From contig DATKSL010000033.1 in the NCBI GenBank assembly GCA_035531675.1, positions 160,260 through 224,259 on the forward strand: 64,000 nucleotides of DNA, given 5' to 3'. The DNA is from Candidatus Binataceae bacterium (GTDB lineage: Bacteria > Desulfobacterota > Binatia > Binatales > Binataceae). This document shows positions 3,642 to 32,823 of the stretch, piece by piece (positions within the stretch are counted from its first letter, which is position 1; the number at the start of each line of letters is the position of its first letter). The translations under genes were made by a program, and so were the position numbers. The notes under the pieces are model-generated. The model was not told the DNA's origin. It saw only the letters and a list, made by a program, of their open reading frames with translations, and made no database searches.

Positions 3642-4367
3642 CTAAACGAACACTTCCGAGAACAGGCCGCGCATCGCAGCCCACGAACGCCGGTCAGCCG
3701 CCGGCTGATAGCCAAACCCCGGCATCGGAATCTGATCGGCAGCCGTATTGGTGAAGGCATGCTTCGCGCCGCTGTAGATATTCACCTGCCAATCGACGCC
3801 TACCTTGGTCATCTCCTGCTCGAAGCCTGCCACCTGCGCGGCCGGTACCAGCGGATCTTCGGCGCCGGTGCAGACCAGGATCTTCGGCTTAACCTTGCCG
3901 GGAGCCGCCGGATTCTCGGTCGCCAGCAGGCCGTGGAAAGTGACGGCCCCGGCGAGCTGCGCGCCGCTGCGTGCCAGCTCCAGCACGCAATAGCCGCCGA
4001 AGCAGTAGCCGATCGCGGCGAGCTGCTGCGGATTCACGTTGGGCCGCGCAACCAGCGCATCGTAGCCGGCGCGGAGCCGGCCCTGGAACTTGGGCACGTC
4101 GCCCTTGACCTCGTTCATCATCGCGAGCGCCTCGGGTCCCGAGCCTGCCACCTTGCCCTCGCCATACATGTCGACCGCCAGCGCCACGTAGCCCAACTCG
4201 GCCAGCATCCCGGCCCGCCGCTTGACGTGATCGTCGCAGCCGGGGGCTTCGTGAAAGATCAGCACGCCCGGGCGGCGCTCTGAGCCGTCGGGCGAGGCGA
4301 GGTAGCCGCGCAAGGTGATGCCTTCGTATTTGTAATCCAGAGTTTGCGTCTTCATCCGAGCCTCCAA
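3642..4367 (-). CDS. dienelactone hydrolase family protein
   Basis: DLH-like layout (GYLASP, FHEAPG, nucleophile region CFGG, C-terminal His). A GGAGG RBS lies 5 nt upstream of the ATG at 4367. Confidence 0.8.
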   Translation of the reverse strand: MEARMKTQTLDYKYEGITLRGYLASPDGSERRPGVLIFHEAPGCDDHVKRRAGMLAELGYVALAVDMYGEGKVAGSGPEALAMMNEVKGDVPKFQGRLRAGYDALVARPNVNPQQLAAIGYCFGGYCVLELARSGAQLAGAVTFHGLLATENPAAPGKVKPKILVCTGAEDPLVPAAQVAGFEQEMTKVGVDWQVNIYSGAKHAFTNTAADQIPMPGFGYQPAADRRSWAAMRGLFSEVFV

Positions 4368-4514
4368 TTTTGGGGCCGCTCACCCTCCGCTGATCGGCGA
4401 CGGGTGCGGGCCGGGAACTTTGCGGTAAATCGAGCGCAATGACATCACGCTCTCAGCGCTTCGGCAAGCGAATTCGCAGGCCGAAGCCTGGAGGATCTCT
4501 GTACAAGTCCGGTC

Positions 4515-4577
4515 GTCATTCTGAACGGAGTCTGCGCAGTGAAGAATCCCGGGATTCTTCGCTGCGCTCAGAATGAC
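4515..4577. repeat. 63-bp imperfect palindrome (long hairpin) between the StyA-like and dienelactone-hydrolase genes
   Basis: GTCATTCTGA...GCGCAGTGAAGAATCCC|GGGATTCTTCGCTGCGCTCAGAATGAC. The arms are 27 nt with one mismatch and a 9-nt bulge. No U-tract follows on the transcribed (minus) strand. Confidence 0.5.
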
Positions 4578-4602
4578 AGAATGGGCCTCGTGCAGAAATT
4601 CC

Positions 4603-5847
4603 CTAGCTGGCCGGGGCGGCGCGCGAGGCGATTAACTTGTGTGCTTCGGCGAGCTCGCCAATCGCGGGCCAGAACTCCTGCGGCTCGTTGAAGTTGGCGA
4701 CGAACCATTCGGCGAGAGCGGGGTTTTGCGAGGCCGCGCCCAGGATTTCGCGCGCCGGCTCGGTAATCGGTTCCAGCAGCAGGTTGGAAAAATTCGTGAT
4801 GCCCTTCGATTCCTTCTCCCAGTACTCCTCGAACAGCGCTTCCATCCAATCCGCATCGAAAGGGCGTGAGCGACGCTCGACGATCCGCTCGATCGCCAGA
4901 TGGGTAGTCTTGGCGGCATGATTCGAGCCCTGCCCGGCGATCGGATCGTTGAGCACGACGGTGTCGCCCAACCCCATCACGACTCGCCCCGACTTGAGCC
5001 GCCCGACCGGCCGGCGGATGGTCGGCGTCAGCGCCCCCTTGGCCCACGCCATCGGATCGGTCAGGGCGACGTCGCGCACGGTCGCGGACTCCCACGGTGC
5101 GAACTCGGCGATTATCTCGCGCGCGATGCGGATCATCTCGTCGCCCGAAGCGGCCGCGCCGAAGCGATCCATCGGGCCGCCCCGATGCGCCTCGAATAGC
5201 AGGCTGTAGCAGTTGATCCCGCCGACGGCGTGAAACGGGATCCAGAAGATCTCGCCCGCGCCGGCGAAGAAGGTGAACTTGATTGGCACGTCGAGCGCGA
5301 TCTTCCACGGCTTTAGCCCGGCCAGCGTCAGCAGGCCGAGCTGGCGGCGCGGCGCGGTGTAGACGCTGCGCGTGTCGTCGCGCGGGAAGAGCCCGGCGAT
5401 TTCACCCTTGCCGGCGGCGACCACCACCAGGTCGTGGCTGGCGGCGAGCTGCTCCAAGTCGTCGAGGGTGGCGCCCTTGAAAATCAGCTGGCCGCCGCGC
5501 CGCTCGAACTCCTCCATCCAGCGCGCGAACTTGAGCCGTTGATCGATGGCCTGTCCGGGCCGCGGCAAAGCGGCCTCGACCTGGAGCGCGATCGCACCCG
5601 GCTGCAGGCAGAAATCGAGGTGGATGCCGGCGCCCCAATGAGTCTCGCGATCCCAGGCGTTGAGCCCCAGCTCGCGTTCGTAGCTGAGCGCGCGATCGAA
5701 CATGAAGGCGGTTGCGATCGCGCGCCCCTTGAGCAGCTCCTCGGGCCGCCGATCCGAAAACAGCGTGACCTGGTAGCCACGGCGCAACAGCCCGAAGCCG
5801 AGATGAAGTCCGGCCTGCCCGGCGCCGATTATCGCGATACGCCGCAT
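4603..5847 (-). CDS. StyA-like FAD-dependent monooxygenase (styrene monooxygenase large-component family)
   Basis: N-terminal MRRIAIIGAGQAGL dinucleotide-binding motif, internal GLGD motif and a C-terminal region resembling StyA-type epoxidases, 414 aa. The start lies 3 nt after the stop of the upstream cupin gene. Confidence 0.6.
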   Translation of the reverse strand: MRRIAIIGAGQAGLHLGFGLLRRGYQVTLFSDRRPEELLKGRAIATAFMFDRALSYERELGLNAWDRETHWGAGIHLDFCLQPGAIALQVEAALPRPGQAIDQRLKFARWMEEFERRGGQLIFKGATLDDLEQLAASHDLVVVAAGKGEIAGLFPRDDTRSVYTAPRRQLGLLTLAGLKPWKIALDVPIKFTFFAGAGEIFWIPFHAVGGINCYSLLFEAHRGGPMDRFGAAASGDEMIRIAREIIAEFAPWESATVRDVALTDPMAWAKGALTPTIRRPVGRLKSGRVVMGLGDTVVLNDPIAGQGSNHAAKTTHLAIERIVERRSRPFDADWMEALFEEYWEKESKGITNFSNLLLEPITEPAREILGAASQNPALAEWFVANFNEPQEFWPAIGELAEAHKLIASRAAPAS

Positions 5848-26232: not shown

Positions 26233-27561
26233 TCATACACCCGGCAGCGGAAAGAACCGCACCCCGTTGTGATTATCGCAACCCATGGTGGTGGTGGTAC
26301 CCGCGCAGTTGCCGGCGGGGAGCGCCGTATTGATAGCGCCCGGATCTTTCCGCAACTTTTCAAGATCGACCTCGGCCACAAAGGTTTCGTCGCTATTCAC
26401 GATGTAGGCGCGGTTGTGGCAGGTGTCGATCGTATCGCTATACGGAAGTATGGCAGCCTCGAACTGTGCGCCATCCGGCTGAAGCGGCAGGGCTGCGCTC
26501 ACAGCGTCCAAATCGTATGGGCTGATGTACTTCATGGGAGCTTTTGGCAGGCTCAGAAGCACGACTTCATTGTCGAGCAGTCCGGTCAGGAACGCCTCAT
26601 GAGTCATCGGATTGATCGTCACGCCGGGCAGAAGGTCGTTGGCGCCGGTGTCGAAGTTGAGCGAATTGGGCGGCGGTGTTTCGGCCTCATCCAGCGTGCA
26701 CGACGGGGGCATCCCGTTAAAGGTTGCGCCCGAAAGATTAAGCACCGAGGTAAGAACGTCACCGAAGTTGCCAATTACCCAGATGCCCGTAGTCGGGTCC
26801 GCCGCCGCGCCTTCCGCGTCGCCGTTGAGGTCGACCACGTTGCCATCGGTAAGCGTGCAGGCTGCGTTGGCCGCAACGTTAGTTGCGTACATGGTAGGGT
26901 CGATAAAATCCGAAGGACCCAGTGCGGTCCGTGCCCGCGGGTCGAGGCCGAAATTGTTGACCGGGCTGTCGAACTGCATCAGCGGGCCAAAGGTATTCGA
27001 AGCCAGGTCGAAGGTTGCCATCCCGGTGCAGTCGGTGAAGCTTCCGCCCGGGCAGGTAATCGGCGTCGAGGTCATCGAAACCAGCGCGCTGTTGTGAATC
27101 GAATCGAACACGATCCCGTCCGTGAAGCCCGGTCGGCTGCCGACTGGAAACGAGAACGGTGAGCCGGCTACGAGCGTATTGTCGCTTTCGTTGATTTCGT
27201 CGAGATAGCCCGTGGTCAGGATCGATCCGCTGACCACCAGCACCAGCCCCTGCTTCGCCGCGATCGCAGTCCCAATGGCGATGCCGCCGTGACCCAGATC
27301 GACGGTGGTCACGGTCGGGTCGGTGGTGTCGGGGTCGACGCTCAGATCGAGCACCGCGACTTTGGCGTCAGTTCCGCTGGTGGTTGGGAGCGGGACATAG
27401 GCGCGCTGGTGCTTGCAGTCGACCGCCTCCAGGCTGGCGTTGGTCGCATTTCTAATGGCCGCCGAAGGCGTCGGCGGCAGTGGTGAGCTGCCGTTGCTGC
27501 CGCCGCATCCGGCCCACAGCAGCGCCATCGACACGATCCCCACTAGCCAGGCCCGCTTCAT
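26233..27561 (-). CDS. secreted lipoprotein-like protein (443 aa), possible beta-propeller
   Basis: MKRAWLVGIVSMALLWAGCGG signal with a lipobox-like LWAG|C. Gly/Thr/Asp-rich repeats. Its ATG overlaps the stop of the upstream giant gene (ATGA at 27558-27561). Confidence 0.55.
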   Translation of the reverse strand: MKRAWLVGIVSMALLWAGCGGSNGSSPLPPTPSAAIRNATNASLEAVDCKHQRAYVPLPTTSGTDAKVAVLDLSVDPDTTDPTVTTVDLGHGGIAIGTAIAAKQGLVLVVSGSILTTGYLDEINESDNTLVAGSPFSFPVGSRPGFTDGIVFDSIHNSALVSMTSTPITCPGGSFTDCTGMATFDLASNTFGPLMQFDSPVNNFGLDPRARTALGPSDFIDPTMYATNVAANAACTLTDGNVVDLNGDAEGAAADPTTGIWVIGNFGDVLTSVLNLSGATFNGMPPSCTLDEAETPPPNSLNFDTGANDLLPGVTINPMTHEAFLTGLLDNEVVLLSLPKAPMKYISPYDLDAVSAALPLQPDGAQFEAAILPYSDTIDTCHNRAYIVNSDETFVAEVDLEKLRKDPGAINTALPAGNCAGTTTTMGCDNHNGVRFFPLPGV

Positions 27562-30500
27562 TTTCGCACCCCCATTCCCTGCGTATCGCTGCACACCGGT
27601 GCGGTCGCCGTGGTGGCGGCGTAATGCGGAAAGTCCCCCGGGACTGGAGTCGGCATCACCGTGGTGGGCGGCATCGTTCCCACCAGTGCCAGATGATAGG
27701 CCGGGGTCGGCTCGGGAGCCAACATCGCGGTCGGAAGGGTGCAGGTCGACGGGCCGGGCACATAGTTGGGGTCGGTAACCGTGATTACGTAATCCTTGCA
27801 ACCCTCTGCCGGACAGACGTAATAGGTCTCGCCATTCGCGTTTTTGGGACATGAGGGATCCGCCGGCGACTTATCCTTGCAATTGGCCAGCGGTGACGGA
27901 CCATCGGGATTGTGATCCTCCTGGGCCACGTAGAGGAACAGCCAGCCGGTTGAGGAATCGTAATAGTATTTGTCGAGACCGTTATGACCACTCATGTCCA
28001 TGGTACTAACGTAGGTCCCGTCCGAGTTGGTGATGTCACTCAGATTTGCAGCCGGGCTCAGGGTGTCCGTCGGCCATAGGCAAGCCGGTTGGCCGCGGTT
28101 GTCTGTAACCTTGGTGGTACCGTCGGGGCATCCCGCCGAGGCCAGCGTGATCCCGTCGGCCGGGCATCCGATGTAAGGATCTTGCGGCCCGGAGGTGGGA
28201 GTATAAGGACACCCGGCGAGGAGGGGATTCGACGGGCATTGCAGGTTGATTGGCACGGGCTTGTTGGGCAACCCCGGCAACAGGGTATTGCCGACCAGAT
28301 TGTCGCAAATCTCGTGATTACCGTTCTTGTCGACGTACAGATTATTCAGCTTGTTATAGTAGGCGCGTAATTCGAGGTCGTCGGGGCCAGCGCCGATCGT
28401 GCCGCCGCCGTAGGAGTGGTAGCCGCGTGCGATCGTGAACGACGACGCATCCGCGGGCTTGCCGTTCTTGTTCTGGTAGCAGATACCGATTCGCACGTAG
28501 AACGGGTTGGTGGCGCTGATACTGGGCTTGTAAGCATCCACAATGCCCAGCTCAAGGATCTTGGCGATCCCCGCGTCCGTGCCCTTGTCCTGCGCATCAA
28601 CCGCGGCTGTTACCGTGTAGCTCAGCCCGCTGGTTACCTTGGGCTCCCAAACTCCCAGCGCATTGCGGCTGGTGAGGGTCATCGCGCCATGCCCCCCGAA
28701 ATCGACCGCGTCCTTGGTGAAGGTGATCGCCTGCTTCTGCAGAAACGGCGGCTTCGTGCTGTCGGCATCGGGCGGATAGAGCATCTGGAGTTCCAGCGTC
28801 GCCATGCTCGACGGCGACATCAGCGCGGTCGGCCGGTTCTCGAGCACCGCATCCTGTGCACCCTCCGCCAGGCACTCGTCCACCGAGTTGCTCGAGGCGT
28901 TGATCACCAGGCCGTTGAGCGAGATCGGATGGGGTCCGTCGAAGCGCGTGCTGACCGTGTTTTTAGAGTCAGCGGCCACGAACCCGGACAGCGTGCCGTC
29001 GAGATCGACTACCGCGGTGTTCTGATCTCCGTCGCCGAAGCCCGAGCTCGGATTTAAGGGATCTTTGCCGAGGTTGACGTATTGCGTGTAGATCTGATGG
29101 CGCAGATCGGTATTGACGAAGCTCAACTCCGAGGTGTTCGCCAGCGTCGGATAGCTGCTCTGGTTTGACTGGAACCAGCCAAAAGCGGCATCACCCTCGT
29201 AGACCCAGTTCTTCTCTACGCCGTCCTTACCAGTCAGTTTACGAGCGTCGCCCCAGGCTTTGAGCGCCGCGGCGTCGTCACCCGTGAGCGCCGGACTCTG
29301 TTTGAAATCTACAAAACGATCGTGGATCAGACGGGCCGGGCCGTCGTAGATCATGTAGCCGAACATGTTCCAGTTGGGGTCGGGATAGCCTTTGCCGATC
29401 TCATCCGCGCTGTGCGGCTGGTCGCCCGTCTGGACCGGCGTCTGATCGATACAACCCGCCAGCGGCGCCTGACCGGCGAAAGAGGTGTCCGGCCGGGGGC
29501 ACGGACCGAAGCGATCGACATTGTTCTGACTGATTCCCTCGAACACCGAGTTCTCGGTCAGCATCCAGTCGCCCGGGGTGGCGCCGTCGACCCCGCCGGC
29601 GGTCAGCAGCGAGGCGCTGTCGCGGCTGGTCGCGAAGCGGCCGTGGTCGAGCACGAACCACTGATCTCTCAGCCAGACCCCGCGATCGCGGATGCGGAGC
29701 GCGGTCAGGCCGTCGAATTCGGCCAGCAGGTTGCGACTGTTAGGCGTGCCATCGACCGTCGGATGGAGCAGTGAGGCGTTGGATACGCTGTAAGCTCCCT
29801 CGCCGAAGAGGCCGTCGAAGCAGGCGCTGACGCGGTTGTCGCGGAAGGTTCCTACCGGCAGGTATTGGTTAAAATGGACCGCCGTGGGCGCGTTGATCGG
29901 GGGCGGAACGTACCAGTAGCCGACCCCTACGCCCTGGCATCCGTCGATTATATTGCCGGTCAACTGCGTGCCCGGATTGGTGATCCAGAAACCGCTGGCC
30001 GGTTCGATGTAAACCGGATTGTTAGCCGGACATCCTCCGCCCGCCAGCGGCGGGACATAGCCGCCGAGTTGGCCGTTGTATCCGAAGGTCGTACACGAGC
30101 CGTGGGTCGGGTTGGCGGTGTTGTCCATGTCGGGGATGTTGAAGCCGTTGTAGCCGATATTGTCGCCACCCGGCTTTCCATTGGTCAGGTAATCCCCTTT
30201 CCACCAATACTTGTCGATCAGCTCGTCCCGGGAGAATTTGTTGGTCTTGTAGATATCGAACGAGTTGCTCATCGCGCCGATGCCGAGATTGTCCCGGAAG
30301 GTGATGTTCTTCTCGTCGCCGATCTCTTCGTAAAAGAGATGGCCGACAGCACGGACGCATACCGTGTTCGAAATGGTCAGATTGTCGGTCGAGTGCACCG
30401 TTACGCACTTGTTGTAGCTGTGGTCGATGCTGTTGGAATCAACCAGCGCCGTCCCGCCGGCAAGTGGGCCGTCCATGTGAAAATGGATCGGATAGCTGCC

Positions 30501-31718
30501 GAGCTGATCCTTGCCGAACTTCTGCATCTCCACGCCCTGGATCGAGACCTCCTTGAAACCCATCAGGTACCTGGTCTCGCCGCCCCAATGGATATCGGCC
30601 TTATCCTTGCCATCGATGCTCGCGGTCAGCTTGATATTGCGGCTTAGCAATGCGACCGGGGCGCGCTCGTCAACGCCGTAGTTCTGCGCCGCCGGGTCAC
30701 TGTAGTTGAGCGGACTCGGCTGCGAGGTGCAGGCGCTGGTGCATCCCATGGGCGCCATGCCGCAGGCGAAGTAGGTCGGCACGTTGTTGACCATGCAGAA
30801 CTGGCTTGGCGTCGGCGCCGCGCTGCCGAAGTGGTAGTGAACCAGCGGTGTCGAAAGGAAAACGTCGCTGCCGGTCGGATTGTCAGCCGGCTTGCTCTTG
30901 ATGCTCGCAATCTTCACGATCTCGGTGTCGAACGGGCTGAAGCTGGTGCCGCCCACCGCAATCCAGTCATCGTCCTGCCAGCGACCGGTACCCTGGGTTA
31001 CGTCGTCGGCCAGCCGCAGCGCATCCGCGCCGTCGGTCCCAACCGGCACCGTGACTCCGCTGCCCTTGCCATAATGCTTGGGCGGCCCGGCGGGCTGCGA
31101 AAGGTAGCTCCAGTTAAGGCCGTTGGGCGGGACTCCCTTCTGCCCATACATCTCCAACGAGCCGCCGCTTTGAACCTGGATCCCCTTGCTGAAGTCCGGG
31201 CAGTTGGTCCCCGCCGCGCACGGACGTTTGCCGTTGAAGTCGAGTGTGACCAGCGTCATCGGATCCGTCATCCCGATCGGATGGGCCTTCTGGCCGATCT
31301 GGAGCAGGCCGTTGACCAGGATGGTGCCGACCTCCATCTTCACGGTCTTGTCTGGAAAGCAGAGCGTGGCGCCGGAATCGATGGTGATGGTGTTGAAGCG
31401 CTCCTCGCCCATGTAGCTCTTATCGACGTATACGCTCGGGCCGCATCCGTTGGCGCCGATCTCAAGGTCTTTGTTGGCGCCTTTTTTACAGCTCGAATTC
31501 GACAGCGGGATCGCCGATGCGCCGCAGATACCCGGATCCGCTTGGACCATGTTCCTGAAGTTTCCCGGGAGCGTCCTGGCGCCGCTGCCGCCGCTATACG
31601 CACTGACTATCAGCATCGTGGCTGCCGCGAATGCCCAACGGACGACCGTGAAGCTGCGCCGCCTGGGTCCGGAAGTCTGCGAACTGCCAGTGATTTCCGA
31701 AAAGATTTTCCTAAACAT
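27558..31718 (-). CDS. giant secreted G8-domain / right-handed parallel beta-helix protein (CEMIP/TMEM2-like), 1386 aa, Cys-rich C-terminal region
   Basis: N-terminal region with Tat-like RRRSF plus a hydrophobic signal. A G8-like Gly-spaced domain (res ~90-210). A central YPIHFHM...CVTVH...GHLFYEE block reminiscent of the CEMIP/TMEM2 beta-helix. Multiple CPxxGC-type Cys pairs near the C-terminus. Uninterrupted 4.16-kb frame. Confidence 0.6.
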   Translation of the reverse strand: MFRKIFSEITGSSQTSGPRRRSFTVVRWAFAAATMLIVSAYSGGSGARTLPGNFRNMVQADPGICGASAIPLSNSSCKKGANKDLEIGANGCGPSVYVDKSYMGEERFNTITIDSGATLCFPDKTVKMEVGTILVNGLLQIGQKAHPIGMTDPMTLVTLDFNGKRPCAAGTNCPDFSKGIQVQSGGSLEMYGQKGVPPNGLNWSYLSQPAGPPKHYGKGSGVTVPVGTDGADALRLADDVTQGTGRWQDDDWIAVGGTSFSPFDTEIVKIASIKSKPADNPTGSDVFLSTPLVHYHFGSAAPTPSQFCMVNNVPTYFACGMAPMGCTSACTSQPSPLNYSDPAAQNYGVDERAPVALLSRNIKLTASIDGKDKADIHWGGETRYLMGFKEVSIQGVEMQKFGKDQLGSYPIHFHMDGPLAGGTALVDSNSIDHSYNKCVTVHSTDNLTISNTVCVRAVGHLFYEEIGDEKNITFRDNLGIGAMSNSFDIYKTNKFSRDELIDKYWWKGDYLTNGKPGGDNIGYNGFNIPDMDNTANPTHGSCTTFGYNGQLGGYVPPLAGGGCPANNPVYIEPASGFWITNPGTQLTGNIIDGCQGVGVGYWYVPPPINAPTAVHFNQYLPVGTFRDNRVSACFDGLFGEGAYSVSNASLLHPTVDGTPNSRNLLAEFDGLTALRIRDRGVWLRDQWFVLDHGRFATSRDSASLLTAGGVDGATPGDWMLTENSVFEGISQNNVDRFGPCPRPDTSFAGQAPLAGCIDQTPVQTGDQPHSADEIGKGYPDPNWNMFGYMIYDGPARLIHDRFVDFKQSPALTGDDAAALKAWGDARKLTGKDGVEKNWVYEGDAAFGWFQSNQSSYPTLANTSELSFVNTDLRHQIYTQYVNLGKDPLNPSSGFGDGDQNTAVVDLDGTLSGFVAADSKNTVSTRFDGPHPISLNGLVINASSNSVDECLAEGAQDAVLENRPTALMSPSSMATLELQMLYPPDADSTKPPFLQKQAITFTKDAVDFGGHGAMTLTSRNALGVWEPKVTSGLSYTVTAAVDAQDKGTDAGIAKILELGIVDAYKPSISATNPFYVRIGICYQNKNGKPADASSFTIARGYHSYGGGTIGAGPDDLELRAYYNKLNNLYVDKNGNHEICDNLVGNTLLPGLPNKPVPINLQCPSNPLLAGCPYTPTSGPQDPYIGCPADGITLASAGCPDGTTKVTDNRGQPACLWPTDTLSPAANLSDITNSDGTYVSTMDMSGHNGLDKYYYDSSTGWLFLYVAQEDHNPDGPSPLANCKDKSPADPSCPKNANGETYYVCPAEGCKDYVITVTDPNYVPGPSTCTLPTAMLAPEPTPAYHLALVGTMPPTTVMPTPVPGDFPHYAATTATAPVCSDTQGMGVRK

Positions 31719-32097
31719 ACACCCCTCAAACGACGAATGAACTTCTGCCTTGGTCCAAAAAAAAGCTCAGCCTCCAGCAGGTAACCGGACTACTGCCTGG
31801 GGCAGCTGGCTGCTCAATTCTGACTTCGCGTTGCCGAAGCTGTTGTCGCGTGGGTTTACCGTGATCAGGCCCCTGGATACCGGGCTGGATTCACCCACAC
31901 TAGAGCTCCCCTTGTCCGCCACGCAGGGCCTTGCCGGTTTCGACGCCGACTGGTCTGCTCAGCAGGCTCAAAGGCTATATCACGACTAGATTGAACAGGA
32001 AAAGACTAGGCGACACCCACTTGCCAATTCTTGAGCCTACCAAAATAGCCTTACATGCTGCATCACTTCGGATTTTCATCTGAAAATTAACAAAAGG

Positions 32098-32823
32098 TCA
32101 CTGTGCGCCAAACGTAGCAGCGCTAAAGACCGGTACCCTCACCGGTATCTGCATCCGCTTGCCGTTGCGCGACACGCTGAGATAGACCAGCTCGCCGGCG
32201 CGCGCCAGGTTCATCCGCCGCGAGAAATCTAGATAATTCGTAATCCGTTCGCCGTCCAGACCGATAATAAGATCGTACGACTCTCCCACGCGCGAGCCGC
32301 TGACCGCCGCCGCCGCCAACATCGCCGGCGGAAAAAACAGCGATACGGCAAACGCTACCCCCGAGAGCGCGGAATTGATGCCCACCCGCTCGCCCCGCAG
32401 CCCGGCGTAGGCGGCTGGGGTGCCCGGAAGCACCTCGACGACCAGCAGCCCGGCCACTTCGCCGCTACCGTCGACGCCGCGGTGATCTTCCCGAATCACC
32501 ATCCCGAGCGACGAGGAGTCGTCTCCGTCCGCCATGAAATCGCTCAGGCTTCGCAGCTCCCGGCGCAGCTCGGCCGGCGGGGCCTGCACAACGGGGGGAC
32601 TGCTGCCGCCCGCGGAATTGTAGATATCCGGCGGAGCGCCGAAGGGAGCCGCAGCGTTCTGCGATTGAGGTAGAACCGCGGGCGGGATCTCAGTGGTGCT
32701 GGGCGGCAGGACCGAAGGGGGCGAACCCTCCTGGGCGCTTATCGGCAGAGGGCGCAGCGCTAAAGGCGTCAGGCATAGCGCAATCAACGCCCATCGCGGG
32801 ATATGGCTTCCCCCGGCGCGCAT
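32098..32823 (-). CDS. secreted PDZ domain-containing protein
   Basis: Signal peptide, Pro/Ser-rich linker, then a PDZ-like segment (LLVVEVLPGTPAAYAGLRGERV...DLIIGLDGERI). Confidence 0.5.
   Translation of the reverse strand: MRAGGSHIPRWALIALCLTPLALRPLPISAQEGSPPSVLPPSTTEIPPAVLPQSQNAAAPFGAPPDIYNSAGGSSPPVVQAPPAELRRELRSLSDFMADGDDSSSLGMVIREDHRGVDGSGEVAGLLVVEVLPGTPAAYAGLRGERVGINSALSGVAFAVSLFFPPAMLAAAAVSGSRVGESYDLIIGLDGERITNYLDFSRRMNLARAGELVYLSVSRNGKRMQIPVRVPVFSAATFGAQ

Follow-up and report, generated by a model that had tools for sequence, protein, structure and literature searches.

CEMIP (also KIAA1199 or HYBID) and TMEM2 (CEMIP2) are implicated in animal hyaluronan turnover. CEMIP is secreted and contains two GG domains (PMC12423501). 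The active site and mechanism of CEMIP and TMEM2 are unsettled and their activity is disputed (PMC10206443, PMC10474455, PMC13113925). In the hands of one group, TMEM2 lacked hyaluronidase activity and its active site could not be assigned (PMC10206443); another group reported intrinsic hyaluronidase activity of the purified protein (PMC10474455), and the catalytic role of CEMIP is itself unsettled (PMC13113925). Bacterial G8-domain proteins had been called essentially uncharacterized in an earlier sequence-only reading of the locus described here, and a literature search on bacterial G8/CEMIP homologues indeed retrieved no paper on bacterial members.

The window analyzed in this study is a stretch of 64,000 nucleotides from Candidatus Binataceae, a soil bacterium. 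On its minus strand lies a gene pair, consisting of a large gene for a G8/CEMIP-type beta-helix protein (27558..31718, 1386 aa), homologous to TMEM2/CEMIP, and a lipoprotein gene (26233..27561, 442 aa). The pair is best explained overall as an exported beta-helix depolymerase with a translationally coupled beta-propeller lipoprotein partner, a reading to which we assign a probability of roughly 55%.

The open reading frame of the large protein is uninterrupted, as the sequence-only reading had stated, and the motifs RRRSF (residue 19), YPIHFH (409), CVTVH (438) and GHLFYEE (459) occur in the places indicated by that reading. The deposited NCBI model, labeled “G8 domain-containing protein,” is only 1330 aa long and starts at M57. 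Since the ATG at 31718 is conserved together with the sequence directly upstream (including a GAGG motif in locus L004) and since the N-termini of the homologues can be aligned from residue 1 onward, the gene probably begins 56 codons upstream of the deposited start. The late start probably conceals the signal peptide, which is of direct relevance for genome annotation.

Both Pfam families expected from the earlier call of a G8 domain and a CEMIP-type beta-helix score above their curated gathering thresholds. The G8 domain (PF10162; residues 106–194, 31137..31403, minus strand) is matched with 39.2 bits against a cut-off of 22.9 (E = 7.4e-10; E = 1e-10 in a fragment search), while CEMIP_beta-hel (PF24606) is matched with 132.2 bits against a cut-off of 27.3 (E = 3e-38). 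The latter family, together with the TMEM2 alignment, delineates a right-handed beta-helix core at residues ~250–805 (29304..30971, minus strand), which carries the motifs VDERA349, YPIHFH409, HSYNKCVTVH, GHLFYEE459, SGFWI and YDGP. Further downstream, an acidic DGDQN...DLDGT motif (residues 896–909, 28992..29033, minus strand) has DGDKN..DIDGS as its counterpart in TMEM2 and may represent a calcium site. The C-terminal region (residues 1130–1386, 27561..28331, minus strand) is rich in cysteines as had been claimed, with 12 of the 32 cysteines of the protein located within residues 1138–1376. Ten of these 12 show a conservation of 90% or more, and the YYYDSSTGWLFLY motif of the region matches TMEM2 in block 5 of the TMEM2 alignment.

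A search of the PDB with the family profile gave TMEM2 as the sole match (E = 5.5e-62). The alignment spans the G8 domain (TMEM2 chain residues 61–163), both halves of the helix (chain residues 328–541 and 580–807), the DGDKN motif and the C-terminal motif, with an identity of ~26% and many invariant polar residues in common. The AF2 model of the large protein has a pLDDT of 85 and a pTM of 0.87, and its Cys-rich C-terminal region is modeled at pLDDT values of mostly 82–97. The protein thus resembles a solved family member in sequence as well as in predicted fold, and on these grounds it is a homologue of the animal TMEM2/CEMIP ectodomain along its length. G8 and CEMIP_beta-hel are also the Pfam families of CEMIP, likewise a secreted protein. 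The Cys-rich C-terminal region in addition gives a weak match to CEMIP_X (PF24605), which remains sub-threshold (15.8 bits against a cut-off of 27.6) and covers only 27 residues; the motif concerned can be aligned with TMEM2.

The bacterial protein also differs from its animal relatives. The human/mouse TMEM2 ectodomain (PDB 8c6i) belongs to a protein with a type II membrane anchor, whereas its bacterial relative carries a signal region of the cleavable type and a Cys-rich C-terminus of its own. The first lectin-like domain of TMEM2, about 160 residues inserted in the helix (chain residues 164–327), has no counterpart in the bacterial profile. Typical of the CEMIP/TMEM2 family are two such GG domains, the first within the helix and the second C-terminal; the bacterial protein gives no Pfam match to GG/ILEI lectin domains, even at E ≤ 5 on fragments.

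The N-terminal signal region (residues 1–47, 31578..31718, minus strand) consists, as read directly from the sequence, of an RRR n-region, the hydrophobic stretch TVVRWAFAAATMLIVSAY and SGA followed by R. Together with the 22 of 32 cysteines that reach at least 90% conservation across the family, it identifies the large protein as exported by prediction. The RRRSF signal had been considered Tat-like, which we do not accept, as the motif is not conserved among orthologues, although Tat export may still apply to this one protein. We compared the site with the consensus (S/T)-R-R-x-F-L-K and its conservation in orthologues: RRRSFTV in the window protein is RRRQRGLTV in an orthologue of 86% identity, so that RRxF is missing even there, while other orthologues show RRRLGRA or RRRHGLA at the site or lack RR altogether. 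Ordinary or lipoprotein signal peptides are found in the more distant family members. Because of the 22 conserved cysteines, Sec export followed by periplasmic disulfide formation would fit better than Tat export.

The large protein is best pictured as a predicted exported, disulfide-rich right-handed beta-helix. Most likely it would be an endo-acting depolymerase whose substrate is an extracellular and probably anionic polysaccharide, and it would presumably work at the cell surface or in the periplasm. Hyaluronan would not be the expected substrate in a soil bacterium. The beta-helix polysaccharide lyases and hydrolases and the phage tailspike depolymerases share only 6–14% identity with the protein, and none of their Pfam families is matched; the structurally compared enzymes include PL6 alginate lyases, chondroitinase B, GH87, GH110 and Klebsiella capsule depolymerases. 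Such depolymerases make up most of the structural neighbors, which argues against the alternative of a non-enzymatic, glycan-binding or adhesive surface protein for which the propeller lipoprotein would serve as anchor. About 130 positions, many of them His, Asp, Glu and Arg, are invariant across phyla at 41–49% identity. Along the helix, many polar residues are strictly conserved between the bacterial and human proteins, as would rather be expected of a catalytic site. With the hyaluronidase activity reported for purified TMEM2 (PMC10474455) pointing in the same direction, we regard a non-enzymatic role as unlikely.

The partner begins with the signal MKRAWLVGIVSMALLWAG-C19, a hydrophobic region followed by a lipobox ending in Cys (L15-W-A-G-C19, 27505..27519, minus strand). 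Its earlier designation as a 443-aa lipoprotein can be kept for the lipoprotein part, while the length has to be corrected to 442 aa. Residues 1–34 are disordered in the predicted model and form a tether, after which the model shows a seven-bladed, YncE-like beta-propeller. The 39 homologues of the partner have the lipobox consensus AGCGG in common, and the family is further marked by six conserved cysteines and an invariant C-terminal FFPLP motif. Neither the partner nor any of its 39 homologues matches a family in Pfam or NCBIfam, and a PDB sequence search with the partner gave no match, so an assignment to a known sequence family was rejected. Compared to Escherichia coli YncE and other seven-bladed propellers of the YVTN type, the partner shows 12% identity and no sequence-family match, and it differs from YncE by its lipid anchor, its six conserved cysteines and the FFPLP motif.

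The stop codon of the large gene overlaps with the start codon of the lipoprotein gene (ATGA, 27558..27561, minus strand), exactly as had been noted from the sequence, and the lipoprotein gene is translationally coupled to the G8 gene by this overlap. The same 4-bp overlap is present in loci L004 and L005, while a gap of 19 nt separates the genes in L006. The proposal of a two-gene unit was sustained in that the pair recurs in other genomes, yet the unit is restricted to one clade: the propeller and G8 genes are neighbors at 13 of 78 species loci, which belong without exception to a single G8 clade. Two subclade members have the partner downstream of the G8 gene and twelve have it upstream, on the same strand, so that the gene order is inverted between subclades. 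It is absent within 10 kb in three relatives at 74–75% identity (L009, L010, L013) and in two further clade members (L022, L055). Because these five clade members do without it, the partner is dispensable. The same pairing was encountered in metagenome loci when the propeller was used as the query.

Adjacency could in principle reflect a lineage-specific operon arrangement of two exported proteins without a direct functional link. The loss of the partner in the five clade members would be in line with this, as would the lack of any G8-propeller fusion or partner-specific feature in the G8 protein. A “Rosetta stone” fusion was looked for, but the long propeller-bearing proteins have no G8 or CEMIP domain; they contain TIG or Kelch domains, a sub-threshold DUF7379 or no known domain. 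Similarly, no docking insertion specific to partner-linked G8 proteins was found, and these proteins show only three clade-specific substitutions. The distances within the G8 and propeller families are correlated (Mantel r = 0.89, p = 2e-4), a correlation that would also arise from simple vertical co-inheritance and can be explained by shared descent. Against a mere operon arrangement, the adjacency is kept through the inversion of gene order and through divergence to ~40% identity, the propeller also follows a G8-family paralogue of only 27% identity, and it is the only positionally fixed neighbor within its clade. We therefore consider the absence of a functional link very unlikely.

The preferred reading of the pair assumes a functional link: the propeller, carried on a flexible, lipid-anchored tether and inherited together with one clade of G8 genes, most likely would form a complex with the enzyme, either holding it at the outer membrane or presenting the substrate. 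Beta-propellers can also be tight enzyme inhibitors, as exemplified by BLIP-II. The partner might accordingly be an inhibitor or immunity protein that shields the envelope glycans of the producer from its own secreted depolymerase, and enzyme-inhibitor pairs typically show such tight translational coupling and a strict adjacency that holds in both gene orders. However, most members of the G8 family, including close relatives, have no propeller gene; an obligatory immunity function is disfavored because such a function would be hard to lose, yet the gene is absent in these relatives. In addition, distant propeller homologues are unpaired and lie between gcvP and mutS, a housekeeping setting. 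An inhibitor is thus quite unlikely in our estimation.

An extension of the depolymerase-propeller reading is a two-component envelope system in which the outer-membrane-tethered propeller would replace the built-in lectin domain of TMEM2/CEMIP by capturing polysaccharide and retaining the enzyme, while other clades would use a lipid anchor of their own or a BBP7 barrel. We put this forward tentatively, as a possible but doubtful scheme. If it were true, the catalytic site of CEMIP/TMEM2 would be marked by the residues that the bacterial and human proteins have kept in common. A lipobox of their own was found in none of 12 partner-linked G8 proteins versus 16 of 56 others (p = 0.055, with phylogeny ignored). 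A gene for a BBP7 outer-membrane barrel, the one other positionally fixed neighbor across the 78 loci, is situated 19–1565 nt upstream on the same strand in six Burkholderiales-type loci. The propeller lipoprotein and these alternative outer-membrane neighbors suggest how such enzymes may sit at the cell envelope.

The TMEM2-like family was sought by scanning 185,579 species, each represented by a single genome, and of the pattern matches obtained at least 121 loci could be confirmed. The family is present in cultured Variovorax and Xenophilus strains, which offer a tractable way of locating the conserved functional site and identifying the ancestral substrate.

The gene pair is flanked on one side by PDZ_2, Usp, DUF5996 and cyclase genes and on the other side by alpha/beta-hydrolase, CMD and glyoxalase genes. 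No glycan-utilization genes lie nearby, a point against the depolymerase reading, and the other neighbors were discarded as a clue to the substrate, since they amount to generic genes (CoA-transferase, SDR, luciferase-like and amidohydrolase) at variable distances. The intergenic region upstream of the G8 gene (379 bp, 31719..32097, minus strand) has a GC content of 53% compared to 63% for the whole window, and the low-GC leader described earlier was recovered (40.5% GC at 31975–32100). A regulatory RNA, promoter or terminator in this region was rejected, as nothing recognizable was found: there is no Rfam match (the best E-value, 0.45, is to an insect lncRNA), no sigma-70 promoter consensus and no terminator. 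Approximately 40 nt directly before the ATG of the G8 gene are conserved in relatives, and the rest of the region can be aligned with the closest relative only. Some G8 proteins in other clades carry a lipobox of their own.

The large protein is encoded by an uninterrupted ORF of 1386 aa (27558-31718, minus strand), as the sequence-only reading had it, and no interrupted ORF was found among its relatives. The G8 domain and CEMIP-type beta-helix proposed in that reading are both recovered by HMM search, with 39 bits for Pfam G8 (cut-off 22.9) and 132 bits for Pfam CEMIP_beta-hel (cut-off 27.3); NCBIfam has no model matching the protein. The motifs picked out by eye are present as well (RRRSF at residue 19, YPIHFH at 409, CVTVH at 438 and GHLFYEE at 459), as is the Cys-rich C-terminus, which holds 12 of the 32 cysteines within the last 250 residues. 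A family profile built from 46 members has a single match among PDB sequences, with E 5.5e-62 to the ectodomain of human TMEM2 (8c6i). The alignment takes in the G8 region and the two halves of the beta-helix, as well as a DGDKN..D.DG motif and a C-terminal Y(F/Y)DSSTG(L/W)LFLY motif, and the AlphaFold2 model of residues 187-1386 reaches a pLDDT of 85 and a pTM of 0.87. On this evidence the window protein is a bacterial homologue of TMEM2/CEMIP, animal proteins implicated in hyaluronan breakdown, along its whole length. It differs from them in having no detectable lectin domains: the bacterial profile has no counterpart of lectin-like domain 1 of TMEM2 (residues 164-327 of the chain), and no GG/ILEI domain was detected in the window protein. 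The C-terminal elaboration, which matches CEMIP_X only below threshold, is also its own.

The identical NCBI deposit (100%) is only 1330 aa long. This model is 56 codons shorter (31550-31718, minus strand) and begins at M57, so that the signal peptide is hidden. In the 86% orthologue the ATG at 31718 is kept, together with a GAGG a few bases upstream; both are partly kept in the 74-75% relatives, and alignment with the N-termini of homologues begins at residue 1. These features indicate that the true start is probably at 31718 and that the longer model with the signal region is the better one. The Tat-like RRxF motif seen at first is not kept in the closest orthologues, and distant family members carry ordinary signal peptides or lipoboxes instead. 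Sec export with periplasmic disulfide formation would be the simpler reading, since 22 cysteines are conserved; Tat export, which conservation does not support, may still apply to this one protein.

The intergenic region upstream of the gene measures 379 bp, with 53% GC against 63% for the window, and the low-GC leader was correctly noticed (40.5% GC at 31975-32100). It contains no Rfam match, sigma-70 consensus or terminator, and it aligns well with the closest relative only, except for some 40 nt directly ahead of the start codon, GGACCAAGGCA.AAGTTCATTCGTCGTTT.AGG (31719-31775, minus strand). This stretch is partly kept in four relatives (L004, L009, L010 and L013; 74-86% identity) whose upstream genes differ, and it matches no promoter consensus or RNA family. 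To us the region looks like an ordinary promoter and 5' region and no more. The gene pair is flanked by PDZ_2, Usp, DUF5996 and cyclase genes on one side, and by alpha/beta-hydrolase, CMD and glyoxalase genes on the other.

The second gene (26233-27561, minus strand) is translationally coupled to the first, whose stop codon overlaps its start in the predicted ATGA (27558-27561). Its product has 442 aa rather than 443 and is, as proposed, a lipoprotein, beginning with the lipobox MKRAWLVGIVSMALLWAG-C. It has no match in Pfam, NCBIfam or PDB sequences. The AlphaFold2 model (pLDDT 88) shows disorder over residues 1-34 and an all-beta domain, a beta-propeller, for the remainder; six cysteines are conserved and the C-terminal FFPLP motif is invariant. 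The lipoprotein belongs to a very small family: of 1.84 billion representatives, 50 match at E<=1e-30. Its last residues, G-V-R-F-F-P-L-P-G (26233-26262, minus strand), are invariant or nearly so in 39 homologues and could be a blade-closing or docking motif.

Conservation of the pair, which the first reading had left to be checked, holds in one G8 clade and fails at most loci, the partner being found at 13 of 78 species-representative G8 loci. The 86% orthologue has it downstream with the identical 4-bp overlap and a 71% relative downstream with a 19-nt gap, while in 12 more distant species loci (G8 40-44%, propeller 39-47% identical) it directly precedes the G8 gene, in the same orientation. 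Every partner-linked locus falls inside one clade of a neighbour-joining tree, within which the partner has been lost at L009, L010, L013, L022 and L055; one further locus is not assessable. In a search of metagenome loci starting from the propeller, homologues of 43-71% identity adjoin a G8 gene wherever the flank is long enough, and those of 36-42% stand alone where this can be judged. Two stand-alone copies (L087, 6001-7272; L089, 6001-7305; 38-40% identical) lie downstream of glycine-cleavage genes (gcvT/gcvP) and just upstream of mutS, adjoining an oppositely oriented NTP_transf_3 gene. Because they sit alone in this conserved position, they suggest that the ancestral function of the propeller was independent of G8. 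Another locus (L088, 1138-7227) encodes a divergent CEMIP_beta-hel protein of 1445 aa, which shares 27% identity with the window protein and has G8 below threshold, followed by a 90-aa ORF and a propeller lipoprotein homologue (44% identical).

Within-family distances of the G8 protein and of the propeller go together (Mantel r 0.89, p 2e-4), a correlation that shared descent alone would equally produce, and neither a G8-propeller fusion nor a partner-specific insertion in the G8 protein was found; adjacency without a functional link is a less probable rival reading. Many G8 members lacking the partner are themselves lipoproteins, as against 0 of 12 partner-linked ones (Fisher p 0.055). We propose that the propeller lipoprotein may bind the large protein, tethering it to the outer membrane or presenting substrate; alternatively, and less probably, it may be an inhibitor or immunity protein. 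The large protein itself would depolymerise an extracellular polysaccharide at the envelope, a non-enzymatic binding protein or adhesin being the rival explanation. The animal paradigm is itself unsettled, since soluble TMEM2 showed no hyaluronidase activity and no assignable active site in one study (PMC10206443), another reported intrinsic activity (PMC10474455), and in a 2026 review the mechanism still counts as undefined (PMC13113925). A dedicated propeller lipoprotein occurs in one bacterial clade. The bacterial proteins are of value chiefly in offering a tractable way towards the functional site that is conserved in the CEMIP/TMEM2 family.

Bacterial homologues of 1250-1530 aa, at 41-49% identity, are spread over Binataceae, Methylomirabilota, Alphaproteobacteria, Acidobacteriota, Actinomycetota, Dormibacteraeota, Burkholderiales (Variovorax, Xenophilus, Ramlibacter, Rubrivivax, Casimicrobiaceae) and Gammaproteobacteria (Methylobacter, Steroidobacteraceae), with about 130 invariant positions. 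The family is already catalogued by an NCBI protein name and Pfam domains; our literature search found no paper on bacterial members, in line with their description as essentially uncharacterised. Besides the propeller, the only positionally fixed neighbour is a BBP7 outer-membrane beta-barrel gene (Pfam E 3e-64), located 19-1565 nt upstream of G8 on the same strand at six loci of Casimicrobiaceae, Alcaligenaceae and Burkholderiales (L045, L069 at 3952-5100, L073, L075, L079, L084). Barrel and propeller are distinct envelope partners of G8 genes. Two or three G8 paralogues occur together in some genomes. Among four such Binataceae-type genomes, exactly one copy adjoins a propeller gene in three (L028+L061+L078, from one MAG; L042+L082; L044+L081) and neither copy does in the fourth (L015+L060). 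Two gammaproteobacterial loci contain tandem G8/CEMIP-like gene pairs (L037, 10001-18073; L051, 9946-18271).
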